64,000 bases of DNA, taken from assembly GCF_003790525.1 (NCBI RefSeq), contig NZ_CP033635.1; one strand, written 5' to 3'. The translations under genes were made by a program, and so were the position numbers. This stretch comes from Escherichia coli. GTDB taxonomy: Bacteria; Pseudomonadota; Gammaproteobacteria; Enterobacterales; Enterobacteriaceae. The notes beneath the pieces are model-generated. The model was not told the DNA's origin, ran no database searches, and saw only the letters and a list, made by a program, of their open reading frames with translations. Below, in pieces: positions 31,934 to 49,499 of this stretch (the stretch's first letter is position 1; each line of letters opens with the position of its first letter).

Positions 31934-32965
31934 TCACTTTTTCTCTGGTTGTACTTCATGCCCTTGGCAGCCACACGACTCTCCTGTTCGTAAATAAAAC
32001 TCAAATTCAACGCGGCGAACTTCTCCATCCCAATTTTTCAGCATGTCAATTGCCGCACGGGCCATCTTATCGACAGGTTGTCGAACAGCAGTTAAAGAAG
32101 GGACGTTGTAAACCGATTCTTGTGTTGCATTAAAGCAGACCAGCGCAACATCTTCAGGAACGCGCAGCCCATGTTCTGCCAGGGCGCGTAAACAACCGAG
32201 AGCCTGTTGTTCATTCGTCGCAAACAGGGCGCGTGGCAGTTGGTTCTCAAGCATGCGTTTTGTCGCTTCGTAACCGCCGGCGCGGGTATAGTTGGTCGAA
32301 AAAATCCATGAGGGATTGACCACTAACGATGAGGCTTCCAGCGCCTGCCGCCAACCCCGGATACGATCCTGAGTATTCAGCATTTCACGTGGGCCGCAGA
32401 TGATGCCGATGTCGCGGTATCCGTGATCAATCAGATGTTGTGTTACCAGCATTGCCGCCAGTTGTTCATCAACCTGGATAACGCTGACGTTAAGTCCAGG
32501 ATCCACACGATCGAGCATGACGCAGGGGGTACCGCTCTCCTGAATCAAATTGATATAAGGATGGCGATCAACACTGGTGTAGATCAGCCCGTCAACCTGA
32601 CGGTGCAGCATATTATTAATGAGTTCACGTTCACGGCAGCTACTGTCGCCTGCGTCTCCCAGCAGGAGTACTTTGCCATCAGCAAAGGCTTCGTGCTGCA
32701 GAGCATGAGCTATAGAAGCGATAAACGGGTTCGAGATGTCCGGCACGACTAGCCCGTAAGTTTGCGTACTCCCTGAAGCCAGCGCACGCGCGATGCCATT
32801 GGGTCGATAACCGGTTTTCTTAATTGCCTGTAGTACACGTTGCCGAGTCGCTTCGGCAACGGGGCGCGGACCATTATTAATAACGTAACTAACGACAGCG
32901 ACGGATGTCCCTGCTTCTTTTGCCACGTCAGAGCGTGTTACGCGTTGTGAATGTGATTGAGTCAC
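31934..32965 (-). CDS. LacI-family transcriptional repressor
   Basis: N-terminal HTH (...VTRSDVAKEAGTSVAVVSYVINN...) and periplasmic-binding-protein-like effector domain. Confidence 0.85.
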   Translation of the reverse strand: MTQSHSQRVTRSDVAKEAGTSVAVVSYVINNGPRPVAEATRQRVLQAIKKTGYRPNGIARALASGSTQTYGLVVPDISNPFIASIAHALQHEAFADGKVLLLGDAGDSSCRERELINNMLHRQVDGLIYTSVDRHPYINLIQESGTPCVMLDRVDPGLNVSVIQVDEQLAAMLVTQHLIDHGYRDIGIICGPREMLNTQDRIRGWRQALEASSLVVNPSWIFSTNYTRAGGYEATKRMLENQLPRALFATNEQQALGCLRALAEHGLRVPEDVALVCFNATQESVYNVPSLTAVRQPVDKMARAAIDMLKNWDGEVRRVEFEFYLRTGESCGCQGHEVQPEKK

Positions 32966-33069
32966 GAAGCACCTACCTAATTGCGTTCAGAGTGATTTTT
33001 TCCAGACAGCATAAGGCGTTATGACCCAAAAATCTTTGGTAAAGAACGCGCATCTCACGTTCTCTGGCC

Positions 33070-34470
33070 TTAAATTGCATCCTCGGGTAAGTTGAGATCC
33101 CGCCCGCGAGTCTCTGGTGCAAAGAACGTGGTCACCAGTCCAATCGCGGCCATAAAGGCGAAATAGATAGCGATTGGCCACCAGTGTCCGTAAAACGAGA
33201 GTAGCGCAGAGGCGATAAGTGGCGCTGTCCCGCCAGACATAATGGAACCGAGCTCTTTTGCAAATGCCATTTTGGTATAACGATTAGTGACACCGAAAAG
33301 CTCAACGCCCCACGCAGCCTGAACACCAAAAATACCCAGTGAAGCAAGCCCCATCCCGGTAATGATCGTCGGGATAACAATCCACGGCTCACGGGAATCC
33401 AGCAGCATAAATGCTGGAAAGGCATACAGGATCAGTAACAGGCAGAACCAACGATAGATGATACGTCTACCGAATCTATCGGACAGCCAACCCGCCAGAG
33501 GAATAATGGCAAATCCCAGAACGGATGCAATAAGTACGGCTGCCGTGGGTACGGACTCATCTACCATTAGTACTTTAGCGACATAACCAATGATAAACCC
33601 CTGAGCGAGATAAGAAGGACCATTCTCACCTATGCGTAATCCGACCATAGTCCAGAAGGCACGGGTCCGTTTCCAGAAGCTACGAGTGTCATGTTGTTGT
33701 TGTGCTTTTCCCTCACGAAGAACCTTTTCTCGTTCAGCCTGCAGAAGGGCTTTTTGACGTTCAAAGACTGGTGTTTCGCGTATATGACGACGAATTAATA
33801 GAGCGGCAGCAGCAATAAGAATGCTACAAAGAAAAGGAATACGCCATCCCCAGTTTAATAAGTCATCCTTGTCCATTTGCAGGACGATGAGCCAAACCAG
33901 TGAAGCCAGTAATGTTCCGCTGTTCGACCCCAGACCAATAACAGATGAAACTAGTCCACGTCGTTTAACGGGAGCATATTCACCAAGCATCACAGTACCG
34001 CCTGAAAGCTCCGCGCCAGCTCCCAGCCCCTGAGAAAATCGAAGGATAACCAGACATATCGGTGCCCAGACGCCTATCTGGGCGTAACTGGGGATTAATC
34101 CTATTAGCATGGTCGACATGCCCATCAATCCAATAGTGATAACCATGACAATTTTCCGACCATGTTTATCGCCTATCCAGCCGAACAGTAATGCACCAAT
34201 AGGGCGGGCAATAAACCCAACAGAATAGGCGGCAAAGCTGGAAAGTAATGCTATGACGGGTGTCACCTCCGGAAAAAAGACATCGCCAAAGATAATACCT
34301 GCGGCAAGTCCGTACAGAGCAAAATCGGCATACTCCATTGTAGTGCCTAGCCAGCAGGAAAAGGTAGCTCTCCAAAACTCGCGACGTCCCTCGGGGGTTT
34401 CCAGACGCTCCTGAGCTGCCTGTTGGTTATCCACTAGGGGAACAGAGGATGATGGATGATGTGTGTTCAT
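33070..34470 (-). CDS. MFS transporter (metabolite:H+ symporter subfamily)
   Basis: 466 aa, 12 TM segments, MFS motif GxLxDRxGRR (GWIGDKHGRK / LSDRFGRR). Confidence 0.85.
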   Translation of the reverse strand: MNTHHPSSSVPLVDNQQAAQERLETPEGRREFWRATFSCWLGTTMEYADFALYGLAAGIIFGDVFFPEVTPVIALLSSFAAYSVGFIARPIGALLFGWIGDKHGRKIVMVITIGLMGMSTMLIGLIPSYAQIGVWAPICLVILRFSQGLGAGAELSGGTVMLGEYAPVKRRGLVSSVIGLGSNSGTLLASLVWLIVLQMDKDDLLNWGWRIPFLCSILIAAAALLIRRHIRETPVFERQKALLQAEREKVLREGKAQQQHDTRSFWKRTRAFWTMVGLRIGENGPSYLAQGFIIGYVAKVLMVDESVPTAAVLIASVLGFAIIPLAGWLSDRFGRRIIYRWFCLLLILYAFPAFMLLDSREPWIVIPTIITGMGLASLGIFGVQAAWGVELFGVTNRYTKMAFAKELGSIMSGGTAPLIASALLSFYGHWWPIAIYFAFMAAIGLVTTFFAPETRGRDLNLPEDAI

Positions 34471-34894
34471 AAGAACTCCTTGATATTATCTGTCAGATAT
34501 ACATCACAGGTAGATATCTTTCTTAAATCTACTCATGTAGATATTGTGTTTTATTACATATAAATAAATCTACTCGCGTAGACAAACCAGTCAATGGAAG
34601 TAAAATCGTGATAGAGATCACCCATAAGGTGTAAGCGCAAAGCTGGCGTTGTCTGTATCCCCGCTCCTGCCGGGCTAATTTACGCTTAAAACATCAGCAA
34701 TACACCAGCGTATTCAGTAGCGACAAGCATGAGTCACACTCAAACTCCCGACCATCACCATCCTTGAAAGGTTACAGATCCTGATATACCTGTGTTTATA
34801 ATTACCCTACTGTATTTTCATCATGAAACTGAATCGCTACACAGAGCTGTTTATCTGCAGAGTACAGGCTGGATATGGTTTATTATTACCGTAA

Positions 34895-36314
34895 GGTGTC
34901 AACGACGGATGAAAAGTGGCTCTTCCGCAACCTGGGTGGAAGAAAATGGATGAAACTTTCTGGTGAATAAAGATCTAAGCTGTTTTAAGTTATGGGCAAC
35001 GCAATGCACTCTCTTAAGACACTTCTACAGTTACCTTGCGGATGGAGATGCAGTCGACAAATTATTAGCTCTGACGGTATAACCCTCCATCTCCACGGAA
35101 AACGCAAAACAGCACAAGTCCTGAATGCTTTAAGCGTAGCGACTCTGTTCATAGTTATCGTCGGCGCCGGATACAGCATCTACCCTGCTTAGGGCAGACG
35201 CTATGGCTTGTATTTTCCGTCCGCCACTGGTACTGCCGTAACCCGGCTTGTTCACGTAAAATTTTTGCCGGGTCGCTTGCCCCCTTCGCCGGTTCACTCC
35301 CAGCATTCTTCACAGGTGTTACAAAATTTACAACATCAACTGGGATTAATAGCCGGAGGTGAGGCCGGGAAACAGGCAGCAACGGCAGTGGGGCTCCGTT
35401 GCAGTGCTGATACTCTTCTTCGCAGGGTTATTAATACCCCGGAGACGAAACAGTCAGGCGCGCCTCATGTCGGTATTGATGAGTGGGCGTGGCATCGGGG
35501 CTACCATTACGGTACGTTAATCGTCAATCTTTATACTCACCGTCCCCTCGTCCTGCTTCCCGGTTGCGATCAGAGTACGCTGGCGACCTGGTTCAGAAAA
35601 TATCCGGAAATACAGGTTGTCTCACGTGACCGTGGCGGAGTCTATGCGACAGCAGCACGTGAAGGTGCACCTCAGGCCAGACAGATAGCTGATCGATGGC
35701 ACCTGCTAAAAAATATTGGCGATGCGCCTGAACGAATGATGTACAGACAGATGCCTCTGATACGTCTTGTTGCCAGTGGGTTGTCACCAAAGAAATCACC
35801 TGAGCCAGAACTGTCTGTGCCTGTAGCATCGCTCCGTCGTCCGGAACGCCTTAAACAGCAAACCCGCCAAAAATGGCATCAGCGTTGGACAGAGGTTATG
35901 GCACTACATAACAAGGGATGTGGGTTCAGGGAAATATCCCGTATTACAGACTTATCACGTGTGACAGACAGTCTCTGGGTGTGTTCAGGAACATTCCCTG
36001 AAATGTCAACCCGGCCTCCAGAGCGAGGACTTATGGACCCATGGAAGGAGTGGTTAAAAGAGCAACGAGAAAGTGGTAACTTCGGCGCGTGGCTGCGAGG
36101 ATGGAAGCTGATGCTGCGGCTATATGTGAGGCAATCAGCAGTCGCTGGAATAATGGGGGGTGTCGAAAGTCATGTAAATCGGCTAAAAATGCTGAAAGGC
36201 CAGATGTATGGTCGAGCCGGATTTGAACTACTCAGGCAGAGGGTCATGAGTCCACTGGCATGAAAATCTCCATCCAGGTTGCGGAAGAGCCACTTTTCAT
36301 CCGTCGTTGACAGC
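34895..36314 (+). mobile_element. ISL3-family insertion sequence with ~40-bp terminal inverted repeats; transposase split by a frameshift
   Basis: Left end GGTGTCAACGACGGATGAAAAGTGGCTCTTCCGCAACCTGG is mirrored by its reverse complement at 36275-36314; transposase in two frames (34992-35192 and 35208-36263). Confidence 0.75.
34992..36263 (+). pseudogene. ISL3-family transposase, frameshifted (N-terminal 66-aa part and C-terminal 351-aa part)
   Basis: C-terminal part contains the ISL3-type core (...HVGIDEWAWHRGYHYGTLIVNL...); the N-terminal fragment is in another frame with a stop at 35192. Confidence 0.65.
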
Positions 36315-37098
36315 TTGGGGGGTAGTGCATCGGTACCTCTAGGTCAAAGGAGGTATTCATATCCATATTAACGACTTGAATATGTTGACAGTACTGATTC
36401 AGATTAACGAAAAACGACCGAGCTTCTCTACTACGCACCTCACCTATCCAGAGGATTGATGAGTATCCGCATCGGCTACGACGGTGCGTAACGATGAGCT
36501 TTGAACAGGGCAAACTCTTTCATGACCCGGCCTTGGCAGTACATCAATCAGACCCTGTGACCTCTATTTGCAACTGACGTTTGTCGATAGTATTGATGAT
36601 ATGCTAGTGCAGGGTAAGAAATTACGAAATATGTTTAATCGGCAAGATTTTGAGTAACGCCTCAACATGCTCAATGAGTCATGTGGTCTGATGAGCATAA
36701 GGCTTTAGCCAGCTGATATAATCCCGAACTATGCCGTAGTTAGGGCAAAGAATGCGGTAGACGGGTAGGCGTAACTGAACTGGAAATACCAGTATTGTTC
36801 ATTACGATAAGGTGCGAAGTAAAGCATCGTGAACGGCTTTAGCCTGTTTGCCACAAGAATAATGACCGTTTTCAATCGGTTTTAGGTGGATGATGAGGGG
36901 GATTTTACTCAGTAGGGACGACGTCAAAGCCTATCCAGAGATAAATGGAAAAGATAGTATTCGAAATTGAGAACGGTTGGGGTTGGTTATCGTTCTGTTT
37001 TAGCAACTAAACAATAACTCCCCAACCGTTATCATTTCCAGCACACGATAATCTGCAATGAACATTAAAAATTCACGGCGGCGGTCGCTTTCCTTAAT

Positions 37099-38061
37099 TT
37101 ACGTCTCCTCTTGGGAGTGGATAATATGGGTGCCTGTTTCGCCACGCAGTGCCGCGGACAGGCATTCAGGCGTGGTGATAATCACTCTTTTACCTCCACG
37201 TTCCAGGAACTCCAGACTGGCAAGAATCTTCGGTAACATACTCCCAGGCGGGAAGTGACCCTCCTGCATGTAACGGGCCATCGTTAGGACATCCACTGTA
37301 TCCAGTGCATGCTGGTTGGGTTTCCCAAAATGAATACTCACTTTTTCCACGCCGGTGGTGATCACCAGAATGTCGGCGTGAATTTCGCGAGCCAGTAGCG
37401 CGCTAGAGAGATCTTTGTCGATAACCGCGTCCACGCTTTGGTAATCCCCTGCGTCAGTACGCACCACCGGAATGCCACCGCCGCCCGCGCCAATCACCAC
37501 AAAGCCTTGCTGGATCAGAGTCTTAATGGCAGGTGCTTCGACAATACGTTTCGGTTCCGGCGAGGCGACCACGCGGCGATAGCCCCGTCCGGCATCTTCA
37601 ACAAAACGCCAGTCAGGGTTTGCCTTTTGTAGTTCATCACGCTGGTTTTCACTAAAGAATGCACCGATGGGCTTGGTGGGATGGACAAACCCCGGATCGT
37701 TTTTATCCACTTCCACCTGAGTCACCACGGTGACGGCTTTTTTCTCGCCGTGAGGCGCCAGCCGGTTGTTCAGCGCCTGCTGGATCAGATAGCCAATGCC
37801 GCCTTGCGTATCCGCCACACAGTTCGCCAGCGGCGTTAAGGGTAGCCCTTCGCGCTCGTGGGCTATCTCCGCGCGGCGTAAATCCAGACCGACCTGCGGC
37901 CCGTTGCCGTGGGTCAGCACAATGTCGTAATCGGAAGCCAGCATTTCCAGAACCGTATCGGCGACGGCCTTCACCGCCTCCGCCTGATGCTCAATCGACT
38001 GGCTGGCGTTATCTTTGATAATGCTGTTGCCACCAATGGCAACGACCACAAGTTCTTTCAT
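37099..38061 (-). CDS. yahI: Carbamate kinase-like protein (YahI)
   Basis: Amino-acid-kinase fold (VVVAIGGNSI..., ...THGNGPQVG...); position after yahG and length match K-12 yahI as recalled. Confidence 0.75.
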   Translation of the reverse strand: MKELVVVAIGGNSIIKDNASQSIEHQAEAVKAVADTVLEMLASDYDIVLTHGNGPQVGLDLRRAEIAHEREGLPLTPLANCVADTQGGIGYLIQQALNNRLAPHGEKKAVTVVTQVEVDKNDPGFVHPTKPIGAFFSENQRDELQKANPDWRFVEDAGRGYRRVVASPEPKRIVEAPAIKTLIQQGFVVIGAGGGGIPVVRTDAGDYQSVDAVIDKDLSSALLAREIHADILVITTGVEKVSIHFGKPNQHALDTVDVLTMARYMQEGHFPPGSMLPKILASLEFLERGGKRVIITTPECLSAALRGETGTHIIHSQEET

Positions 38062-38087
38062 AGAATTATCTTCCGTTTGCAGGCTAT

Positions 38088-39638
38088 TCAGGTCGTTTTA
38101 GTCTCTTCCTGCTCAGACGCAGCCACTGTTTCACGGCTATCAATAACATGCTTGAGGGCAAACATAGCAAGCATCATCAGGTAGGCCACAACAAACACAA
38201 TCGAGCTGCCTTCCGCAAAGCCAACCGCTGGGGAGTGAATCACGCCAAACAGCGATAACAGTGCTCCAAAGGATGCAGCTATCGCCCCGCGCAGCGGCTT
38301 ATTCATAATGGCAAAGATCGCAATGCATCCCCACAGCATGCTGGCCAGCGGTGCACCGCTTCCCAGATGCATCAGTCCATCGTAATAGACGCCTTTGCTG
38401 TGCAACAGGTCGCTACCAAGTTTCTCAGCGGATGTTCCGGCTGCGCCCATCACGCTGTTAACGATGGTCAATGCCCAGTTGGCGACCCATGGGAACAGAC
38501 AGATGAAAATAACGGGAACCTCGACTTTAGGAGTTTCTCGCACCACCTGATTGGCGGTTACCACACCGATAAAAACCAGAATTGGCACTATAGCAGTCAT
38601 GGGAATAATGGCGAGCATAAACGCGCCCAACCCAAACAATGGCACCAGGAACATAGTGATGCCTGATGCGAGGGTATAGCAGATACTAGCGCCCATAGCT
38701 TTCCAGCCTGCATGCCCAACATATACGGTTACCGGGAACGGATTACCCAGCATGCAACCGAGCATGGAGGCAAAGCCGTTCGCCATCATGACCTTACGGG
38801 TGTTGTATTCATCACCAGCCGCGTGCGCACTTTCAATGTTCTCGAGGTCAAAAATGTAGTTAGCCAGGCCCAAAGGAACTGCAGAAGCCAGATATGGCAG
38901 AGCGTGCGGCAAACCTTGCAGGAAGCTCCTTACATGAATTTCCGGCGGGTTGAAGCCGAAGGAAGACATCGACGCTTTAATGTCTTCCGGGCTTTGTAAA
39001 CCGGATATCCACGCTAGGGACGTACCAGCAATCAGCAACAGCAAACCGGTAGGAATATGGGGAAAAATCGGCTTCTTACCGAACCAGTTAATGAAGATCA
39101 ATAACAGGACGATGAAAGAAACTGTCGGCGCTTCGAACGCTTGCAGCATCGGGTTCATTGCCAGCAGTAATAACCCCAGTCCGGACAGACAAGAAAGCAG
39201 CACTGTACGCGGGATCATCTTGCGGATAGTCTCACCCAGGAAGGAGCCACCGACCAGGATCAACGCTTCGACAAAGCACCACACCAATCCTATCTGAATA
39301 GCAAAGTTGGCATCTTTGGTTTGCTGATAAACCGGCATCAGCACCAGGAATGTCACGGTAAAGATTGAGGGTGCGCTCGGTCCAGACGGCAGCGCCGTTA
39401 CATCGCTACGACCGGTTTTCTTCACCATCTGTAGACCAAACCAGGAGTAGCAGACACTGGCCGCCAGCACTGCAAGACCAAAGGCAGGCGCAATGCGTCC
39501 ATAGACAATTTCAGTAGGGATTCCGACGACAAAAATTAGCAGACCCATCATTGTCAGCAGGTTAGTCAGATTGTTGGTCATCAGTCCAAAGTAAGCCGCC
39601 CAGTCACCACGTTTCCATTCTAGTTTTATGCTGTTCAT
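38088..39638 (-). CDS. Putative inner-membrane transporter (family not assigned) between yahG and yahI
   Basis: 516 aa, at least 12 hydrophobic segments; occupies the position of the tiny yahH in K-12 (from memory). Confidence 0.55.
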   Translation of the reverse strand: MNSIKLEWKRGDWAAYFGLMTNNLTNLLTMMGLLIFVVGIPTEIVYGRIAPAFGLAVLAASVCYSWFGLQMVKKTGRSDVTALPSGPSAPSIFTVTFLVLMPVYQQTKDANFAIQIGLVWCFVEALILVGGSFLGETIRKMIPRTVLLSCLSGLGLLLLAMNPMLQAFEAPTVSFIVLLLIFINWFGKKPIFPHIPTGLLLLIAGTSLAWISGLQSPEDIKASMSSFGFNPPEIHVRSFLQGLPHALPYLASAVPLGLANYIFDLENIESAHAAGDEYNTRKVMMANGFASMLGCMLGNPFPVTVYVGHAGWKAMGASICYTLASGITMFLVPLFGLGAFMLAIIPMTAIVPILVFIGVVTANQVVRETPKVEVPVIFICLFPWVANWALTIVNSVMGAAGTSAEKLGSDLLHSKGVYYDGLMHLGSGAPLASMLWGCIAIFAIMNKPLRGAIAASFGALLSLFGVIHSPAVGFAEGSSIVFVVAYLMMLAMFALKHVIDSRETVAASEQEETKTT

Positions 39639-39750
39639 GGAATCTCCTTAACAGGTTAAGCATCGTTTGCGATCATGGAGATCGCCCAGCCCTGAAGGTA
39701 AACAACGTTTTCCGCTACTGTGGGGCTAACTGCGTTAGCCCCGGTTATTG

Positions 39751-41169
39751 TTATTGGCAGTAGTGGTCACGCCAGTTGAGGATCGCCTTTTCAAAACAAG
39801 TGAACGGCGGGTGAACAATTCCTGCGCCGATCATGCCGATCCCTGCGTCTTTGTGCGCAATGGCTGTGTTAATTACCGGCAGAATGCCTGTACTGCCTAC
39901 ACGTGTAATATCGATAGCGGTCGGTACGCCCATAAAACCAAGCAGGGGAATGGTGACGTTGGGGTTTTCTCCGAGAGTGATTTCTCTCATTTTACGTGAG
40001 AAATCAATAGCTTCCTCAACTGTTCCGCCCACCAGTGACACAATAGCTGGTGCCGTCGCCATAGCGAAACCGCCAACGCCGTAGGTTTCGGTAATTGCAC
40101 TATCACCGATATCACGTCCGGAATCCTCTAGCTTATAGCCCGCAAACATCGGCCCAATCACCTGCTGCGCCGGACCGGTAAACCACTGGCCCGGCAAACC
40201 GCTAATACGAAGACCGAACTCAACACCATTGCGTGCCATCGTTGTCACCACGGTGCTGTATTCAATGCCGTGCGCAGCGTCCATTGCGGCTTTACACATT
40301 GCCATCCATGTTGGTCCTGAGAAGTAATCACTACTGAGGACAAACTCGAACACCTCACGCTGCTGCTCAACAGGGTAGCCAGTCTGAATAATCCACGGCG
40401 TCAGCGTCTGAATCAGCAGCGCCGTCCCGGCGTTGTTGCGGTTATGGCACTCATCGCCCATATGCAGCGCCTGCGCTAACATCAAGTGCAGATCGATTTC
40501 GCCCGCCAGCTTCATAGCATCGCGCAACATAGGTCCCAGTACATCTCGCATCCAGTTAAGACGCTCTATAACGCTCTGGTCGTTAGCGCCCATACGCAGG
40601 ATCTTTGCCATCTGCTCGCTCATATTGGTATATGCGCGGTTTCCATAGGTTTTGTTCTCGACGATGTGCATAAACATCGATGCAGACGTGACACCCGCCA
40701 TTGAGCCGACACAGTCATGTTCGTGGCACGGAGAGAAGATGATTTCACCTGAAGCAGCTAGTTCGGCGGCATCATCCAGATCTTTCGCCAGTCCTTCAAA
40801 TACCAGAGCCCCGGTTACTGCGCCCTTCATTGCGCCGCACATTTTTTCCCAGTGGATTGGCGGCCCGGCGTGAAGGATAGTGTTACGGGTCATACCCGGC
40901 ACGACGTTGATCGCCTGATCATAGCCAATTAGCACAGGATGCGACTGGATAATGCGTTCCAGCGCCAGCTGATTAGCAGCTGCAATTTTGTCTGCCAGTG
41001 GTGAAGCGGCAATGTCGTCCAGTGCCGTTACCACTTGTATGTTTCCTTGGCCTGGCGGTGTCCAGTCAAGTTGGGTTACCGGTACATTCTGCTTTTTCAT
41101 GTCATCGCTGAACATTTCGATACCGACATTAATAACGTTCAGCGGCTGATTAAACAGTGTCTGGCTCAT
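39751..41169 (-). CDS. yahG: DUF1116-family protein (YahG)
   Basis: 472 aa; adjacent to an FdrA-like gene with overlapping stop/start (41169). Confidence 0.7.
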   Translation of the reverse strand: MSQTLFNQPLNVINVGIEMFSDDMKKQNVPVTQLDWTPPGQGNIQVVTALDDIAASPLADKIAAANQLALERIIQSHPVLIGYDQAINVVPGMTRNTILHAGPPIHWEKMCGAMKGAVTGALVFEGLAKDLDDAAELAASGEIIFSPCHEHDCVGSMAGVTSASMFMHIVENKTYGNRAYTNMSEQMAKILRMGANDQSVIERLNWMRDVLGPMLRDAMKLAGEIDLHLMLAQALHMGDECHNRNNAGTALLIQTLTPWIIQTGYPVEQQREVFEFVLSSDYFSGPTWMAMCKAAMDAAHGIEYSTVVTTMARNGVEFGLRISGLPGQWFTGPAQQVIGPMFAGYKLEDSGRDIGDSAITETYGVGGFAMATAPAIVSLVGGTVEEAIDFSRKMREITLGENPNVTIPLLGFMGVPTAIDITRVGSTGILPVINTAIAHKDAGIGMIGAGIVHPPFTCFEKAILNWRDHYCQ

Positions 41170-42716
41170 CAGCCTTCCTCCCCTTTAAATATAAATTCAC
41201 GTGCCAGTAATCCGGTGTTGGTGCTACTGCTTGCCCAAATAACCCCGGCATCGGTCAACATCTGACACTGTTTTTTCAGCGACGGTGTATCAAGGTCGGT
41301 TCCCAGCACATAGCCGAGGATCTCAAGCGGGCGACCGTCTGCGGCAGCAATTTCTTTGGCTTCAACAATTGTATCCAGCATCACTCCAACCGGATCTTCA
41401 TGTGATCCAAATCCAAGAATGAAGTCCATCACGATCACGCCAACTTCAGGATCCTGTGCTTCCTGCAAGAGCCGGGTAATGCGATTGGTGGGATCGATCA
41501 TCGGATGTGGTTTGCCGTTGGTAAAATAATCATCGCCGAAATCGAGGAAGGTATGCGCCACGCTACGGTTGAGATCTGTAAGGCGGAACGCCGGATTCGG
41601 GTGAATATTGCTATACACATCCGAGAGTTTTTCCATGGCAGTAAACATCGCTTCATCGCATAACGTGCCACCACAGAACAGGCCACGGATATACTTTTGT
41701 TGTGGAGTCAGACGGGAGCGAACCTCTTCAATCAGCTGCCAGTTGAGCGGATGCAAATCCAGACTCTCTTTTTTCACACCAGTCAACAGTACCGCTTTCA
41801 AGGCAGCCTCTTTAGTACCGCGGGCAAACTGTAGGCCTTCTTCATCCGCAGGGGTGGACTCACGTCCGAGGAAACACACCACCACAGGCTTGTGACAGGT
41901 GCGCGCACGTTCCAGCACCTTACGGGCTACCGCTGGTGCAGGAGGTTTGGATATAAGCGTAATGATCTCAGTTTGTGGATCGGCCTCCAGCATGCTAATC
42001 GCGTCAAGCATCATCAGGCCGCCAATTTTTTCACTCATATCGCGTCCACCTGTCCCAATCAGCTGGGAAATCCCGCCGCCAAATTCGTGAATGCGTACGC
42101 TCAGCTCCTGGCTACCCGTACCGGAGGCACCAATGATTCCGATGTTGCCGCGACGCACTGCATTGCCAAAACACAACGCTGCGCCGTTAATGATGGCGGT
42201 TCCACAATCAGGCCCCATCATCAACAACCCTTTTTCATGTGCCAGATGCTTGAGTTCCAGCTCGTCCTCAAGAGAGACGTTGTCAGAAAACAGCATAACA
42301 TTGAGGTTATTTTGTAGTGCCTGACGAGCTTCACGAGCAGCAAACAGGCCATTGACAGAGATCACCGCCAGATTACTCTCTGGAGCATGCTTCTTCGCAC
42401 TGGCAATCGTGGCATAGCGTGCTTCGTGCTGGCCTCCCTGTTCTTTATGCGCAAACAGCTCATCAATCGCTATTAGCGTCCGCTCGTTCGCCTCCTCGCT
42501 GGTACCTTTAATGACAATCATCAGATCGCCACTTTTCGCCTCTTCCAGCTCAGGGGTCAGCAGACCGAGATTCTTCAGCACCCCCTTATTCATCTCTGTC
42601 GCCATAGCAACAAATGCCTGCTCAACTCCATCAAGCTTATTTGCGCGCGTGGAGATAGACATCAGTGAAACAGAATCAAAATACGTGTTTTTTTTTACAA
42701 CTATCCTGATTGACAT
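41169..42716 (-). CDS. yahF: FdrA-like protein, CoA-binding/succinyl-CoA-synthetase-like fold (YahF)
   Basis: 515 aa; glycine-rich nucleotide/CoA-binding motifs (GIIGASGTG, GGRD). Annotated start overlaps yahE by 41 bp; start may be internal. Confidence 0.75.
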   Translation of the reverse strand: MSIRIVVKKNTYFDSVSLMSISTRANKLDGVEQAFVAMATEMNKGVLKNLGLLTPELEEAKSGDLMIVIKGTSEEANERTLIAIDELFAHKEQGGQHEARYATIASAKKHAPESNLAVISVNGLFAAREARQALQNNLNVMLFSDNVSLEDELELKHLAHEKGLLMMGPDCGTAIINGAALCFGNAVRRGNIGIIGASGTGSQELSVRIHEFGGGISQLIGTGGRDMSEKIGGLMMLDAISMLEADPQTEIITLISKPPAPAVARKVLERARTCHKPVVVCFLGRESTPADEEGLQFARGTKEAALKAVLLTGVKKESLDLHPLNWQLIEEVRSRLTPQQKYIRGLFCGGTLCDEAMFTAMEKLSDVYSNIHPNPAFRLTDLNRSVAHTFLDFGDDYFTNGKPHPMIDPTNRITRLLQEAQDPEVGVIVMDFILGFGSHEDPVGVMLDTIVEAKEIAAADGRPLEILGYVLGTDLDTPSLKKQCQMLTDAGVIWASSSTNTGLLAREFIFKGEEG

Positions 42717-43524
42717 AATTACCTCCGGACCTGTGGCTCAGGGCGCAGGCATCCGCCATGCCATACAGCATGTCGCATCCAGAACTTGAGCCTATATTTT
42801 TTATGTCAGTAACATATTGCGTAGAAATGGGTTGTGGCTCAGTAATAAATTGGTTCAGTAGCCGTCCGACTCTTTCCCGATAACGCTGATTAAATGCTTC
42901 CTCTAACGTTATTTTGCTGAGAAGCGTTATGTTATTTCCTGCAAGTTGTAATGCTGCTAAGAAATCGTATCTATACTTCCTTAGTGGATGTCCTTGAATA
43001 AATAAAATAGTGCTTAAACCTACTAAATAATCATCCGATGATGGCGTCAGCCCTATTCCAAGACCAATTAACTGGTTGACTGCCGCAGTGATGTTTTCTC
43101 CTGTACACAACGCCTTCAGCAAATTTTTTCGGCGGTTGAGTAATTGGCGAGAAATTTCCTGATAAAATGGATTGTCACCCTGGTACAGAAATAATGTGTC
43201 GTTGCTTCTTAGTTGTTGGCGGATAAACTCTTCCCAATGCTGCCAGCCGACTTTGGCAAGGCTTGCTGAATCAGATGTCCACCGTGGTATTCGCCACATC
43301 TGACAACCGGTTATTTCTATCCATTTATCATTTCCAACAGTTATTCCAGACCCGCTAAAATTGACCTGTTCACCGGGGTGAAAAAGGTCTTCATAATGTG
43401 TCAGTGCTAAACGACAACTGTTAGGTGCGTTATCACAATCCTCACTCAGTAACGTCAGCAGTCGCTGCTGTTCAGGTATTAACAGATTTACCGCATGGGA
43501 AAAAACCTGTTCAACCTGGCCCAT
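42676..43524 (-). CDS. yahE: DUF2877-family protein (YahE)
   Basis: 282 aa; position between the ankyrin gene and the FdrA-like gene as in the K-12 yahD-yahE-yahF order. Confidence 0.65.
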   Translation of the reverse strand: MGQVEQVFSHAVNLLIPEQQRLLTLLSEDCDNAPNSCRLALTHYEDLFHPGEQVNFSGSGITVGNDKWIEITGCQMWRIPRWTSDSASLAKVGWQHWEEFIRQQLRSNDTLFLYQGDNPFYQEISRQLLNRRKNLLKALCTGENITAAVNQLIGLGIGLTPSSDDYLVGLSTILFIQGHPLRKYRYDFLAALQLAGNNITLLSKITLEEAFNQRYRERVGRLLNQFITEPQPISTQYVTDIKNIGSSSGCDMLYGMADACALSHRSGGNYVNQDSCKKKHVF

Positions 43525-43609
43525 TCCCCGAAAAGTGAGAAACGCGCAGTCTGCGGTTAGTGCCCGAAAAGATTGCCGTGATAATATAGCGATAATCGTG
43601 CTCCTGTTG

Positions 43610-44215
43610 TCAGGCTCCAGCCGAAATCAGCAACTCGGCAATTTTGTGGTAGCCTTTTTCTCGCGCCAGCTCCAGCGGGGTTTTACCGTATTTATCCGTC
43701 ATGTGCGGGTTTGCGCCATGCTCAAGCAACAGTTTGACGATCTCCTGCTGCTTTTCACCGCCGTCATTCAGCACGATGGCCTCTAGGAGCGGCGTCCAGC
43801 CAACAAAATTAGTATGGTTGACATTGATATCAGTACGCATCAGCAATTCACGTACAATCTCGACATGGCCTTTTTCGCAGGCAGGTGTAATACCAACACC
43901 GCCAAAACGGGTTAGGCAATTAAGGTCGGGGTTAGCCGGTAATACCGTACGCAACAGTGTTAAATCATTATTCAGGCAGCCAATCAGGAAGGGATTAAAA
44001 CAAGTTTGATCTTGTTTATTAATATCAGCACCTGCGGAAATCAATAAAGAAACGCAGTCATAATGTTTATTCAGACTGGCAATAATAATTGCAGTACGCC
44101 CCTCGCGGTTAGTCGCATTAATATCAACCTTTTTATCAAGGCATGATTTTAATCCATCGGAATTACCTTGTTCTGCCGCCAGCAGAAATTCTGTAATGAG
44201 TTCTTTATTGGACAT
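43610..44215 (-). CDS. yahD: Ankyrin-repeat protein (YahD)
   Basis: 201 aa with repeated ankyrin motifs (...GRTAIIIASLNKHYDCVSLLISAGADIN..., ...GWTPLLEA...LLLEHGANP...). Confidence 0.8.
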   Translation of the reverse strand: MSNKELITEFLLAAEQGNSDGLKSCLDKKVDINATNREGRTAIIIASLNKHYDCVSLLISAGADINKQDQTCFNPFLIGCLNNDLTLLRTVLPANPDLNCLTRFGGVGITPACEKGHVEIVRELLMRTDINVNHTNFVGWTPLLEAIVLNDGGEKQQEIVKLLLEHGANPHMTDKYGKTPLELAREKGYHKIAELLISAGA

Positions 44216-44602
44216 AATCGATCTCCTGCTCTTTTTAAGATTTTACAAATATAACAAGCCAAGAATAGCAACAGAATGCATAGAGCACCATCCATTTAAA
44301 ATTTACTCATCATTAGACCATGAATTATTGAAACAAAATTAACAATAATAAGAGAGTGTGATATAGTTCAATATTTCTATTATAGCTGGGGATATTTTAG
44401 CCATTAATCCGCAGTCATATAAATAAAGGTGGTCTGCAGCACGGATAGCTGCCTGTAATTAAAATTCAGATGTGTGATTTCCTTCAAATTAAATGTAAAT
44501 ACGGTGTTAATTTTTTCAAAACTGATTGTCGGTTATAAGAATTACAAATACATTCAACAATCATCATGTTGTGTATGTGTATTGTCGCCAGAGGAAAGAA
44601 AG

Positions 44603-45532
44603 ATGAATTCAATATTTACGGAAGAAAACTTACTGGCATTTACTATGGCTGCCCGCTATAGAAGTTTCAGCAAGGCGGCGAAGGAACTGGGCTTAACCAC
44701 ATCGGCAATTAGTTACACTATCAAGCGTATGGAAATGGGGCTTGACGTGGTGCTTTTTACCCGAACTACCCGTAGCATTGAGCTGACCGAGCCCGGGCAC
44801 TACCTTTTTTGCAAAGCAACTGACCTGCTCAACGATTACCACTCCATCATACGTAGAGTTGATGCCATCGCTCAGGGAATTAAATCCCGGGTGCGCATTT
44901 GTATTAATCAACTGTTGTATACCCCTCAGCATACAGCTCGGCTTCTGCAAGTGCTCAGGGAACACTTTCCAACCTGCCAGATAGCTATTACTACAGAGGT
45001 GTATAATGGCGTCTGGGATTCACTCATTAATAACCAGGCTGATATCGCCATTGGCGCGCCCGATACGTTACTGGACGGTGGTGGAATTGATTACATTGAA
45101 ATCGGCATGATTCGTTGGTTGTTCGCGATTTCTCCGGCTCATCCGCTGGCGTTTATTCCTGAGCCCATTTCTGAGAGTCAGTTACGTCTGTACCCGAACA
45201 TCATGGTGGAAGACACTGCAAACACTATAAACAAAAAAGTCGGCTGGCTGTTACACGGGCAAGAGTCGATTCTGGTTCCCGACTTTAATACTAAGCTTCA
45301 GTGCCAGATCCTGGGGGAGGGAATCGGTTTTCTGCCAGACTATATGGTGCGTGAAGCGATGGAAAAGTCATTGCTGGTGACACGGCAGATCCACAACCCA
45401 CGTCAGGATTCACGAATGCTGTTGGCAACCAGGCATTCGGCAAGCGGTCAAGTCACTCAGTGGATAAAAAGAGAATTTAGCTTACAAGGAATACTGACGG
45501 GGATTTATCAGGATTTGATGCATCGAGCGTGA
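44603..45532 (+). CDS. yahB: LysR-family transcriptional regulator (YahB), divergent from yahD
   Basis: 309 aa from the internal Met with RBS; N-terminal HTH (...FTMAARYRSFSKAAKELGLTTSAISYTIKRME...) and LysR substrate-binding domain. Confidence 0.75.
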   Translation: MNSIFTEENLLAFTMAARYRSFSKAAKELGLTTSAISYTIKRMEMGLDVVLFTRTTRSIELTEPGHYLFCKATDLLNDYHSIIRRVDAIAQGIKSRVRICINQLLYTPQHTARLLQVLREHFPTCQIAITTEVYNGVWDSLINNQADIAIGAPDTLLDGGGIDYIEIGMIRWLFAISPAHPLAFIPEPISESQLRLYPNIMVEDTANTINKKVGWLLHGQESILVPDFNTKLQCQILGEGIGFLPDYMVREAMEKSLLVTRQIHNPRQDSRMLLATRHSASGQVTQWIKREFSLQGILTGIYQDLMHRA

Positions 45533-45873
45533 TGCACCGGATGGCAGTTTTACCTTTCGGTGCATCAATGAGATAAATGAAGGGCAATCAGTGAGATAAA
45601 TAACGAATTGGAGTGGGTTACATGGGTTCTGGTGAACAGAAATGAAATTCTTTTTCTCTATGCGATAGACAAATCGGGAATTGAAATCATCCCTACAGGC
45701 AACTCAGAATCTGGGGGCTGAAAACGCTACGAACCATCAGATTTGGATAATATTCATCACCGTTTCGGCCTGATTGTATCCAATCTGGAAGAAAAGTTTC
45801 ATGATTTTATGGGCGTTATCCTTATGGTGCTGGGCGACGAGAGTAATACTTCACGCCGGTTTTGTCGGATAAT

Positions 45874-45896
45874 CCAGAAATATAGGGGCAAATCCA
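45874..45896. mobile_element. Solo IS2 right-end-like terminus (23 bp)
   Basis: CCAGAAATATAGGGGCAAATCCA matches the IS2 right terminus except for one base; no IS2 body adjacent. Confidence 0.45.
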
Positions 45897-46141
45897 AACA
45901 GGAAAGATAGGGGGAGGGACGCGTTTCCGGCACAACCAGCGTTACGTCACCCTGCATTGTTAGTTACGAAAAGCGTACCGGAAACGCGGAACATTCTTTT
46001 AACACATTACAGGCATTCGCACACATCTTTTTTCTTCTTTGTGCTCTGAATACTGCAGTGCTCAATTAATATTAGCCACGTTTTACAGTAAGAACGGTAT
46101 CTGTTCTCTGATTCTTCCGGCGTCAACCCACAGTGTAATTA

Positions 46142-46571
<430 letters not shown>

Positions 46572-46634
46572 TCAGTCTGGTAACTATCGTAAACCGTTCA
46601 GTGGGAAGGATATCAAGAGCACTGTAGCTTTTTA

Positions 46635-46796
<162 letters not shown>

Positions 46797-47519
46797 TCAC
46801 TGGATTCCCGGTATGAGTAACTTTTATTAACGATAAGCCAGGCTATTTGTGCATTGGTGTTGAGGTGAGCATATCACCTCTGTTCAGGTGACCAAATTCA
46901 GTGTGCCATTTCAGTCTGTAATGCGCTGTGTGAAAAAGCTCACTGACAGTCTGAGTATTTGTCTGCAAAGGATGGAGGCCCGTCGAGGGTTCCTGAAAAC
47001 CACTGGTGCGCTGGCGAATAAGCTGACAAGAATCATCTGGCGTGTTTTGAGCGATAGTATTGATTTTAATATGCAGAAGGCCGTTGTGATGAATTAAATA
47101 AAAACAGCAAGTTATAGAAAATATTTTTAACTGAGTTTACATACACTGATGAGATAACGGCTACCGCCCCTGTAACAGTCTGAAGTTGATCTGGGTAATC
47201 AAATACCGGTGTAGTGATTAGGAAACAGGGCCCGGATAACATCATGGCGCAGGTCATTGAACCTACTAACGACGCCGGATATATGGTCGCAAACCGCATC
47301 GAACCAGTACTTGCCTCACCTGGGACGTCCATATATGCTCAACAAAAGAGAGCGTTCAGAATTCTAGCCTCACATCATACCTGAAACCGCGTCCCGACCA
47401 TAGATGATTTTATCGCCGGTTTTTTATAACAATTGTTATATTTCTGTAACAATCTTTCCGTAGACTCACGTGCATAAAAATGATTCCCCTTGAAATCGAT
47501 TTTTTGAAAGGAAACCGCA

Positions 47520-49499
47520 ATGGGCAGACCGTTAAAAACTTTATTCAAACGTGAGCATAGTGAAGAAATCAGTAACCCGAGCGATAACCGCGCGTTTTCG
47601 CAGGTGGCGGAAGTTTATTTGTCACGCCGCCGTCTGTTACAGGCCGGCACGGTCGCCGGTGCCGCGGCAGCGTTCCCATTTCTGCTGAAACAGGAAAACG
47701 CGCTGGCGAAAGTGGTCTCCAAAGCAAGCGGTAACCTCGGCAAAGCGACGACGCTCGGTTTCACCAGCCTGCCGGTTTCCACGGAAGATACCGTTATCGT
47801 GCCGGAAGGATACATCGCGAAGCCCTTCTACAAATGGGGCGACGCCACCGGGATTGCCGGAAATCTGCCGGTTTTTAAAACCGACGGTAGCAACACCACG
47901 GAAGAACAGGCGGCGCAGGCCGGGATGCACCACGACGGCATGGCGTGGTTTAGCCTGCCGCAGGGCGGGAACAGCTCCGATCACGGCCTGCTTGCCATAA
48001 ACCATGAATACATCGATAACGGTCTACTGTTTAAAGATGGCGATGCCAACTGGAGCGCCGATAAAGCTCTTAAAGGCCAGAACGCGATGGGCGTGTCGGT
48101 CATTGAAGTAAAAAAAGTGCCCCTGGGCTGGGAAGTGGTGCGCCCGTCATCGTTCGCACGCCGTATCACCGTTAACACGCCGATGAAAATCACCGGTCCG
48201 GCGCTGCATAACCCACTGATGCAAACAGTTGACGATCCGAAAGGCGAAATCATTCTCGGCACCATGCAGAACTGTGCCAACGGATTTACGCCGTGGGGCA
48301 CCTATCTGACGTGTGAAGAGAACTGGTCCGATATTTTCGTAAAAAAAGCAGAGATGAACCCGCTGGAAAAACGTTACGGTATCAGCGGGAGCGACGACTC
48401 TTACCGCTGGAACGAAGTGGATAAAAGGTTCAGCGTCGACGCCACGCCGAACGAGCCGAACCGCTTCGGCTGGGTGGTGGAAATCGATCCATACGATCCG
48501 CATTCAGTGCCGCGCAAGCACACCGCGCTTGGTCGCATCAAACACGAAGGCGCGGCGGTGACAATTGCCCCGGATAACCGCGTTGTGGTCTATATGGGCG
48601 ATGACCAGAAATTCGAATACATATATAAATTTGTCTCGGAAGGAAAATTCAACCCGCAGGATCGCAAAGCCAACATGCACCTGCTGGAAAAAGGCACTCT
48701 GTACGTGGCGAAATTTAACGACGACGGCAAAGGCGAGTGGCTACCGCTGGTGTTCGGACAAAATGGGCTCGACGCCAGTAAAGGGTTTGAAAACCAGGGC
48801 GACCTGTTGATTAAAACCCGTCTGGCGGCAGACGCCGTGGGGGCCACTAAAATGGACCGCCCGGAGTGGATTGCGGTCGATCCATATCACGCCGGCAGCG
48901 TTTACTGCACGCTCACCAACAACAGCGATCGCGGTACGGAAGGAAAAGCGCCAGTGGATGCGGCCAACCCGCGCGCCAAAAACGTTTACGGCCACATCAT
49001 TCACTGGCTGGAGCATAACGGCGACCCGACCGCGCTGCAGTTTGCCTGGGATATTCTTGTGATGGGCGGTCGCACCGATACGGACAAACCGGAAACCAAA
49101 GGCAGCATGAAGGGTGCGGAATTCGGCAGCGCCGATGGCCTGAGCTTCGATCACCGCGGCGTGCTATGGATCCAGACCGACGTGTCGTCATCAACCATCA
49201 ATAGTAAAGATTACAAAGGCATGGGCAACAACCAGATGGTGGCGACGATCCCCGGTACCAATGAGTTCCGCCGCTTCCTGACCGGCCCGCGCGGCTGCGA
49301 AATCACCGGCATCGCGTTCACTCCGGATAACCGGACGCTGTTTATTAACATCCAGCACCCTGGCGAGCCAAGCGAAGGGCTTAGCGATCCGCAGCATCCG
49401 ACGGCAGTATCAAGCTGGCCTGACGGCGATAAGGCTGGTCGTCCGCGCTCCTCAACTGTCGTTATCGTAAAAGCCGACGGCGGCATAATCGGCACCTGA
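47520..49499 (+). CDS. PhoX-family (DUF839) phosphatase with twin-arginine signal peptide
   Basis: 659 aa; Tat motif SRRRLLQAGTVAGAAAA near the N-terminus; length and composition fit PhoX-type alkaline phosphatases. Confidence 0.65.
   Translation: MGRPLKTLFKREHSEEISNPSDNRAFSQVAEVYLSRRRLLQAGTVAGAAAAFPFLLKQENALAKVVSKASGNLGKATTLGFTSLPVSTEDTVIVPEGYIAKPFYKWGDATGIAGNLPVFKTDGSNTTEEQAAQAGMHHDGMAWFSLPQGGNSSDHGLLAINHEYIDNGLLFKDGDANWSADKALKGQNAMGVSVIEVKKVPLGWEVVRPSSFARRITVNTPMKITGPALHNPLMQTVDDPKGEIILGTMQNCANGFTPWGTYLTCEENWSDIFVKKAEMNPLEKRYGISGSDDSYRWNEVDKRFSVDATPNEPNRFGWVVEIDPYDPHSVPRKHTALGRIKHEGAAVTIAPDNRVVVYMGDDQKFEYIYKFVSEGKFNPQDRKANMHLLEKGTLYVAKFNDDGKGEWLPLVFGQNGLDASKGFENQGDLLIKTRLAADAVGATKMDRPEWIAVDPYHAGSVYCTLTNNSDRGTEGKAPVDAANPRAKNVYGHIIHWLEHNGDPTALQFAWDILVMGGRTDTDKPETKGSMKGAEFGSADGLSFDHRGVLWIQTDVSSSTINSKDYKGMGNNQMVATIPGTNEFRRFLTGPRGCEITGIAFTPDNRTLFINIQHPGEPSEGLSDPQHPTAVSSWPDGDKAGRPRSSTVVIVKADGGIIGT

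Follow-up and report, generated by a model that had tools for sequence, protein, structure and literature searches.

Within the window, the whole 64,000-nucleotide stretch of Escherichia coli DNA analyzed here, an ISL3-family insertion sequence occupies positions 34897 to 36312. The element, referred to below as the relic, reads TGTCAACG...CGTTGACA from end to end, and these ends are conserved across its relatives. An earlier note on this DNA, made from the sequence alone, had placed its limits at 34895 and 36314, within 2 nt of the conserved ends; the extra AAGG/AAGC bases beyond them represent similarity of the flanks by chance. The ISL3 core spans positions 34918 to 36291 and is 1374 bp long here, as compared with about 1722 bp when intact. 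To the left of the relic are MFS, LacI, and nucleoside hydrolase genes, and to its right is a yah-like cluster encoding carbamate kinase, xanthine permease, YlbE, FdrA, AllH, ankyrin, and LysR proteins. This location between an MFS/LacI module and a yah cluster, as described in the note, is borne out by the annotation of E. coli TUM9803, which is 99.9% identical to the window from 29477 to 48998 and from which the neighboring genes are named. The two assemblies are separated by an ~20-kb structural difference upstream. At the relic itself, identity to the TUM9803 locus is 100% over 1424 bp, and the identical stretch there carries the PGAP label ‘ISL3 family transposase, frameshifted’. PGAP flags the relic transposase as a pseudogene in every record inspected, and the element as found is an ordinary IS pseudogene that is already annotated.

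The transposase gene extends from 34992 to 36263 on the plus strand and comprises the two ORFs that the note had listed, one of 66 aa (34992–35192) and one of 351 aa (35208–36263). Its assignment to the ISL3 family also holds. Within the 351-aa ORF, both Pfam DDE_Tnp_ISL3 (E 1e-17) and NCBIfam transpos_ISL3 (E 2e-55, 188 bits with a cut-off of 180) are detected, and an ISL3-type DDE transposase is therefore recognizable, even though its gene is a pseudogene. Terminal repeats that start with GG are a defining trait of this family. The core of the relic has such GGCTCTT-type repeats, namely GGCTCTTCCGCAACCTGGGTGGA on the plus strand at 34918–34940 and its complement on the minus strand at 36269–36291, which agree at 22 of 23 positions. 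The pair is unique in the window and is conserved in all ISEc38-type relatives.

Among intact elements, ISEc38 is the closest relative. Its copy on pEC_RSHH22_1 measures 1764 bp, runs from TGTCAACG to CGTTGACA, and encodes one transposase of 539 aa (WP_075262665.1, annotated ‘ISL3-like element ISEc38 family transposase’), which provides the intact length against which the note had proposed that the two ORFs be judged. The ISfinder length of ISEc38, which we take to be 1722 bp, fits the core without its outer stubs (1764 − 42). The relic and ISEc38 share the transposase lineage (NCBIfam transpos_ISL3), core repeats of the form GG(C/T)TCTTCCGCAAC, and 21-nt outer stubs, and they align end to end except at indels. 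The relic differs from ISEc38 in the loss of 349 bp, in three 1-bp indels, and in a stop codon, and it has no functional transposase. Their nucleotide identity is 93.9% over 1270 aligned coding columns (94.2% and 92.8% in the individual BLAST pieces). By ISfinder convention, copies of the same IS share about 95% DNA identity or more. Because the relic falls short of this value, it would represent a sister lineage of ISEc38 rather than ISEc38 proper.

Composite terminal repeats and the setting of the relic

The terminal inverted repeats, reported in the earlier note as ~40 bp long and near-perfect, are real, with arms at 34893–34940 and 36269–36316 that are 48 nt in length and 96% complementary. 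Nowhere else in the 64-kb window does the 23-nt end motif occur, and 0.00 occurrences are expected from 100 shuffles. However, the repeats are not a single unit. Each 46-bp repeat combines the 23-bp ISL3 repeat with 21 bp that match the right terminus of IS100 (IS21 family) exactly, and the canonical ISL3 end (GG[C/T]TCTTCC…) begins 21 nt inside the conserved tip. Thus, the inverted repeats look 46 to 48 bp long because a 21-bp IS100 stub brackets the core on each side. This composite structure is the one uncommon trait of the element.

The left stub, TGTCAACGACGGATGAAAAGT (34897–34917, plus strand), lies just outside the canonical ISL3 end and matches the IS100 right terminus at 21 of 21 positions (22/22 by blastn) in three loci (L015, L009, and L012) where IS100 is annotated with istA/istB. 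The right stub (36292–36312, minus strand) is, by its identity to IS100, of the same right-end type in inverted orientation. Both relic ends therefore carry the IS100 terminus (TG...CA, with terminal-repeat sequence), the terminal 21 to 22 nt being identical at 22 of 22 positions. Only IS100 positions 1933–1954 find a match in the window, which holds neither istA/istB nor the internal repeat (L2/R2) nor any other internal IS100 sequence. What follows the stub is GATCCAC and the second internal repeat (L2/R2) in IS100, whereas it is the ISL3 repeat in the relic. The window holds footprints of IS100 rather than an IS100. Other ISEc38 copies carry TGTCACGAACGGTGCAATAGT, which is the IS100 left terminus. 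A separate solo remnant, recognized by a motif scan and by reading of the sequence, is located at 18957–18989 on the minus strand and consists of a divergent ISL3 right end (~9–45 nt, ..GGAAGAGCC) followed by an IS100-left-end-like 21-nt stub, ACTTTTGCGCCGTTCGTGACA.

On first reading, the stubs were taken to be an intrinsic extension of the ISL3 repeat, as they are present also in actinobacterial relatives. This interpretation was rejected on three grounds. Each end of IS100 has a terminal and an internal copy of AACGG..AA...TGATCCAC, a repeated IstA site that includes the inner part of the stub. Inside IS21-family ends there are simple insertions with 8-bp duplications, and related cores carry both stub types in either orientation. 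The stubs would instead be footprints left by ISEc38-type insertion into the ends of IS21-family elements, and the two stubs of the same type in the relic may reflect recombination between copies.

No target duplication was found for the relic, either of 5 or 8 bp at the two candidate boundaries or of any length outside the stubs. Of the 8-nt sequences beside the core, the left one is TGAAAAGT and the right one is ACTTTTCA, and the two are inverted rather than direct. The 8-bp direct duplication of the ISL3 family is present in relatives, as ACTTTTCA in L097, GTTTTTCA in L038, ACGTAATT in L051, and CAGATTAG in L047. Since the relic core lacks the duplication that its relatives have, we read the relic as a probable secondary, recombinant arrangement.

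No E. coli record spans the joined flanks (200 bp from each side) as an empty site. The right flank is common to about 100 ColV-type plasmids and several chromosomes, and the left flank (the MFS side) is present only in a few chromosomes. The yah-like genes for carbamate kinase, permease, DUF1116/YlbE, and FdrA travel with the relic on its right, and the plasmid copies of the relic, which are truncated by IS1, keep the same right flank and yah-like genes. The lack of an empty site and of a direct repeat, together with the linked right flank, suggests that the relic is a passenger at a rearrangement joint rather than a recent insertion. It would have been inherited passively together with the yah-like cluster, whether on chromosomal islands or on ColV-type plasmids.

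The most serious alternative is that the relic is non-autonomous yet mobile, being moved in trans by an intact ISEc38 transposase or, through its stubs, by IstA/IstB of IS100. Its compound ends have been preserved, with agreement at 21/21 positions in the stubs and at 22/23 in the core repeats, and intact ISEc38 copies circulate in E. coli. Moreover, a 100-bp probe across the junction of the 349-bp deletion has uninterrupted matches at 261 places (159 chromosomal and 102 on plasmids) in 187 records from 178 E. coli genomes. The deleted derivative reaches up to 4 copies per genome and is present at more places than its right flank, which is found at 162. Nevertheless, each of the eight relic copies inspected either has a flank in common with another copy or has been cut short by IS1, a target duplication surrounds none of them, and duplication of the surrounding island or plasmid segment explains the multiple copies. 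In addition, IstA requires two complete terminal repeats in vitro, which is more than the 21-nt stub (PMC10122671). On balance, we regard mobility in trans as improbable and favor passive inheritance of the relic.

Some observations concern what surrounds the relic. An outside flank (…catacaaa) adjoins its left end in CFSAN061770 and its right end in SMS-3-5 and an O111:H8 strain, so that the same flank is found at opposite relic ends (L011 versus L013/L016). The stub ends in TTGACA, a possible −35 element of an outward hybrid promoter facing the MFS gene. A promoter scan found no promoter there, and counts of promoter-like sites are no higher than in shuffled sequences. Today the relic would plausibly serve only to provide homology, or a joint for rearrangement, between accessory modules. 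The element itself is of little consequence, and its value lies in marking a recombination joint and a homology that is shared by ColV-type virulence plasmids and yah-like chromosomal islands.

The transposase pseudogene

The earlier note had assigned the two transposase ORFs to different frames. In fact, the start positions of both are divisible by 3, which places them in the same frame, and a tblastn search with the 539-aa ISEc38 transposase recovers both in one HSP and one frame, interrupted by a lone TAG at 35190–35192. There is no frameshift between 35190 and 35210, where the note had looked for one. The TAG is created in the shifted frame by a C-to-T change at 35190, where Ch1 and ISEc38 have CAG, and it is found only in the window and in TUM9803.

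The actual frameshifts, measured against ISEc38 and confirmed in an alignment of 12 sequences, lie elsewhere on the plus strand and cancel in pairs. The first is a 1-bp deletion at 35117/35118 that puts ancestral codons 43–103 out of frame and with them the zinc ribbon, which is Pfam Zn_ribbon_ISL3 at residues 40–84 of the intact protein. A 1-bp insertion at ~35298 (35296–35300), which is common to all other relic copies retrieved, restores the ancestral frame. The second pair begins with the 349-bp deletion at 36077/36078, beyond which the tblastn match moves from ISEc38 residues 1–362 to residues 480–539. The deletion removes transposase residues ~363–479 (about 116 residues), including the second HTH of an IstA-like module and part of the DDE domain; in the intact ISEc38 transposase, the DDE_Tnp_ISL3 domain is split (Pfam). 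A 1-bp insertion in a G run at ~36155 (36153–36158), evident in the alignment and from the tblastn frame changes, places the final 35 codons in the current frame again. With both pairs compensated, the TAG is the only interruption of frame 0 between 34992 and 36263.

Where an autonomous element has a single intact transposase ORF, the relic has a gene disrupted by a deletion of 349 bp, three indels of 1 bp, and a TAG stop. The substitutions are likewise altered in pattern. Omega is 0.35 between the relic and ISEc38, a value that mixes divergence before inactivation with later decay, versus 0.10–0.13 among intact orthologues. With the Tenebrionibacter copy as an outgroup, nonsynonymous and synonymous changes number 18 and 10 on the relic branch and 6 and 12 on the ISEc38 branch. 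Relic substitutions fall at conserved residues, in the HTH recognition helix and in the surroundings of the catalytic E. This pattern points to relaxed constraint. Other relic lineages have suffered further damage. Ch1 and CFSAN061770 have an extra G at 35928, and on ColV plasmids the damage comprises an insertion of 19 bp, loss of the 5′ end, and truncation by IS1. The copy that the note had suspected of being inactivated is indeed so, and its damage is heavier than the one frameshift envisaged there, with two compensating pairs, the 349-bp deletion, and relaxed substitutions. The gene has been destroyed by the −1/+1 pair that scrambles the zinc ribbon, by the 349-bp deletion with its accompanying +1, by the lineage-specific TAG, and by substitutions. 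The relic copy cannot make a transposase, and we infer that it is functionless.

Since the frame from 34992 to 36263 is open save for a single TAG, the common ancestor of the relics had an ORF of 423 codons. Pairwise compensation of frameshifts is somewhat unlikely by chance and could hint that a truncated product was under selection for a time. A domesticated remnant, in which the 351-aa or the ancestral 423-codon ORF encodes a truncated DNA-binding protein such as an inhibitor of ISEc38 transposition, would be in keeping with the compensating pairs, with the one long open frame of the relic ancestor, and with an omega of 0.35 rather than 1. Yet the lineages have since gained different disabling changes (the TAG, the +1 G, the 19-bp insertion, and the 5′ truncation), the zinc ribbon is scrambled, and the substitutions strike the HTH recognition helix and the region around the catalytic E. 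The mixed origin of the omega value and the shuffle-level number of promoter-like sites also weaken the case, and we consider domestication very unlikely.

Even harder to credit is that the two ORFs form an active enzyme by programmed frameshifting or as a split transposase, as in IS1 or IS3. Two consecutive ORFs on the same strand superficially resemble OrfA/OrfB, but they are in the same frame with a stop codon between them, and intact relatives in at least 10 species have one continuous protein of about 539 aa. Furthermore, between the −1 and +1 changes, the conserved zinc ribbon is encoded in no frame but the ancestral one, and 116 residues of the catalytic region are deleted.

Finally, the frame damage is real and not a sequencing error, because the four indels recur in other copies and the deletion junction is present in 178 genomes. 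All four are found in 6/6 other relic copies, which come from five further E. coli strains, and in 0/6 full-length relatives. The other copies are those of TUM9803, Ch1, and CFSAN061770 (chromosomes) and of p1ColV5155 and pVTB815v-1 (plasmids), the sixth (L001/L010) being the TUM9803 locus retrieved a second time. The option of a sequencing or assembly error in a transposase that is really intact, which the note had left standing and for which 1-bp indels in homopolymer runs such as the G run at 36155 are typical sites, has a negligible chance of being correct, given the same four indels in strains from different laboratories and on both chromosomes and plasmids, the 349-bp deletion junction in so many genomes, a TAG shared by the window and TUM9803 as different assemblies, and a PGAP pseudogene call in every record inspected. 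We are confident, then, that positions 34897 to 36312 hold an inert fossil of an ISEc38-like ISL3-family IS whose core is bracketed by IS100 right-end stubs.

ISEc38-type cores and the ends of IS21-family elements

The IstA-like module of the ISEc38 transposase comprises residues 303–398, which align with the first 104 positions of the IS21 transposase profile (E 1.6e-16) and with residues 9–101 of IS100 IstA (33% identity, E 2e-11). The equivalent residues of IstA form a tandem HTH by which the terminal repeats are bound (PMC10122671). Among species-representative genomes, a scan yielded 78 loci with relatives of the transposase, and in a tblastn search of these loci with IS100 IstA, 43 matches were limited to the N-terminal region of IstA and did not extend past its residue 130. 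In the window relic, the second half of the module is gone with the 349-bp deletion. A borrowed HTH module of this kind would direct insertion to IS21-type ends.

If such insertions occur, then a junction of the form ‘IS100 interior…GTGGATC-ACTTTTCA|GGCTCTTCC…’ is predicted. We searched for this junction and found it in 12 records. In E1433 (L097), an ISL3 core (3033–4564) is located inside the right terminal repeat of a mini-IS100, which consists of a left-type stub and 28 nt of right subterminal sequence. Here ACTTTTCA is directly repeated on both sides of the core and is then followed by TCCATCGTTGACA, a textbook 8-bp ISL3 duplication. In SMBL (L096), a complete IS100 carries the ISEc38 left end at the same position as in E1433. 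Given these insertions of the ISL3 core in the IS100 right end with an 8-bp duplication, ISEc38 proper is the ~1722-bp core and the stubs are remnants of IS100. The reciprocal junction, wherein the core right end and GCAATAGT are joined to the IS100 left interior, was not found in E. coli in the one orientation searched.

Similar insertions are present in other bacteria. In Rhodococcus koreensis (L038), the core is flanked by a duplication of GTTTTTCA, and the neighboring ORF matches positions 4–104 of NCBIfam transpos_IS21 (E 6e-11). The duplications are ACGTAATT in R. phenolicus (L051) and CAGATTAG in a Bryobacteraceae MAG (L047), and each of these copies has an adjacent istA-like gene detected by tblastn (25% identity over ~300 aa and 24% over ~230 aa, respectively). 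All three are thus insertions with 8-bp duplications directly beside IS21-family istA genes. Simple insertions into IS21-family terminal repeats therefore occur in three phyla, represented by E. coli, two Rhodococcus species, and a Bryobacteraceae genome. At a Chloroflexi locus (L059), istA is adjacent and the junction is not readable.

Nearly all copies in the Enterobacterales (74–91% amino-acid identity) carry 21-nt stubs starting with TGT[C/T]A. Several actinobacterial copies (~33% identity) have TGTCAACGACG…/TGTCGACGAC… stubs. A direct repeat outside the stubs was found for nine stub-core-stub copies. It is 6 bp long in L005 (CCTCTG) and 5 bp long in L018 (GCTCC), L022 (GGTGC), L029 (GTTTC), L030 (TGGTG), L044 (CGTGG), L048 (GACGA), L049 (CACGC), and L050 (GGAGT). 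In each of these nine, the two stubs differ in type, and the core may face either way relative to them. Where both stubs are of the same type, as they are in six copies including the window relic, there is no repeat. Duplications of 5 bp are reported for IS21-family transposition (PMC10122671), and an IS100 that sits in IS1 is correspondingly flanked by a 5-bp duplication, TTTAG.

These data are consistent with a model wherein long (~500–550 aa) ISEc38-type ISL3 elements, equipped with an IstA-derived tandem HTH within the catalytic domain, have the terminal repeat of IS21-family elements as their specific insertion target, and the interior of the target is lost where both of its ends are hit. 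We judge this model to have about an even chance of being correct. The 8-bp duplication would cover nt 14–21 from the IS21 tip. When both ends of one IS21 element are hit, loss of the interior, either by two insertions and a subsequent deletion or in one concerted event, would yield a stub-core-stub unit with one left-type and one right-type stub. The 5-bp duplication made by the IS21 element itself would stay behind around this unit. Copies with same-type stubs, including the relic, would be later recombinants. Alternatively, stub-core-stub units may be moved whole by IstA/IstB, which would also account for the 5-bp duplications. We disfavor this possibility, since the duplication-bearing copies have one stub of each type in nine of nine cases and same-type copies have a duplication in none of six, and since IstA requires two full repeats in vitro (PMC10122671).

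If insertion into IS21-family ends is indeed specific and directed by a captured IstA DNA-binding module, then ISEc38-type elements would be ISs that parasitize, and can erase, another IS family. They would offer a clear natural example of target specificity gained by domain capture between transposase families and a testable model of how one IS family inactivates another. Such a preference would also account for inconsistent reports of ISEc38 boundaries and repeat lengths. We found no description of ISL3 insertion into IS21-family ends in searches of the open-access literature, which yielded only resistome surveys with ISEc38 among their entries. IS4321 and IS5075, which belong to the IS1111 group and insert into the 38-bp terminal repeats of Tn21-family transposons, resemble the ISEc38 type in concept, in that an IS prefers a fixed position in the terminal repeat of another element. 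We know of no DNA-binding domain that these elements have captured from the family they target. They differ from the ISEc38 type in having an IS110/IS1111 transposase, no DDE-type target duplication, and a different target.

A full-length copy at a conserved chromosomal locus

A full-length ISEc38-like element of approximately 1765 bp, sharing 92-93% identity with the relic in the window, occurs in E. coli contig NZ_OZ040994.1 (positions 1928815-1930579). In that genome and in about 2,800 others of the species, which are most of the E. coli genomes where anything matches, the copy lies at a single conserved position on the chromosome, around 1.9-2.0 Mb. The annotation calls it a pseudogene and marks an internal stop. 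Of its two stubs, which are the outer IS100-type sequences beside the ISL3 core, the left is of the IS100 right-end type and the right is of the left-end type, and no target duplication was found at this copy.

Ancestral frame and a possibly exchanged flank of the relic

The two pairs of lesions in the transposase pseudogene of the relic (34992-36263), -1/+1 and -349/+1, each cancel within the pair, and the stretches that are read out of frame contain no stop. The ancestor from which every relic copy descends therefore carried an unbroken frame of 423 codons, which may be accidental or may reflect a passing period of selection.

The sequence …ccacagtgacggcatacaaa, part of an IS3-family ‘integrase core’ fragment beside IS256, directly borders the relic on the left in CFSAN061770 (L011:5001) and on the right in both SMS-3-5 and a strain of serotype O111:H8 (L013:3785 and L016:3785). 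The presence of the same flank at opposite ends suggests inversion or exchange via the near-identical compound ends, wherein the ISL3 core repeat is joined to a stub.

A second footprint and the surroundings of the relic

The window holds a second footprint of the same type of event as the relic. This solo remnant (18957-18989) consists of a divergent ISL3 right end, ..ATGAAAAT..GGAAGAGCC, followed by the stub ACTTTTGCGCCGTTCGTGACA, which is of the IS100 left-end type with three mismatches. IS3-like sequence is present to its right.

The window is distinct from the corresponding locus of TUM9803 (NZ_CP135671.1), where approximately 20 kb of the window (9525-29477) has no counterpart at the matching place. 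An IS256-like segment is repeated at 25630-26905, and the surrounding area, an integrative island rich in IS elements, carries DUF987, RadC/JAB, antirestriction, and DUF932 genes. Directly to the right of the relic, a frameshifted transposase fragment without either terminus (ColV plasmid annotation) lies on the minus strand at 36319-36526.

Junctions and similar ends elsewhere

A further IS100/ISL3 junction, in another genus and with another geometry, is present in Serratia sp. AKBS12 (L079, 1049-1653), where an IS100 IstB C-terminal fragment (98% identity) directly adjoins residues 389-539 of an incomplete ISEc38-type transposase. Several plasmids and one chromosome contain the right end of ISEc38 joined to a stretch of about 23 nt that is similar (85% identity) to the left subterminal sequence of IS100 (H261-H269; e.g., NZ_CP167126.1, 245987-246032). 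These junctions sit within IS66-family tnpC annotations and could represent either an additional kind of target or rearrangement.

In Rhodococcus phenolicus (L051, 1789-1835), IS21-family sequence just inside an 8-bp duplication, GGATCAGTCGCC…, is similar to the sequence with which the ISL3 core repeat begins, GGATCTGTCGCAC…. Two copies of the motif TCACGTAATT occur there, as L1/L2 repeats at the end of an IS21-type element would lead one to expect.
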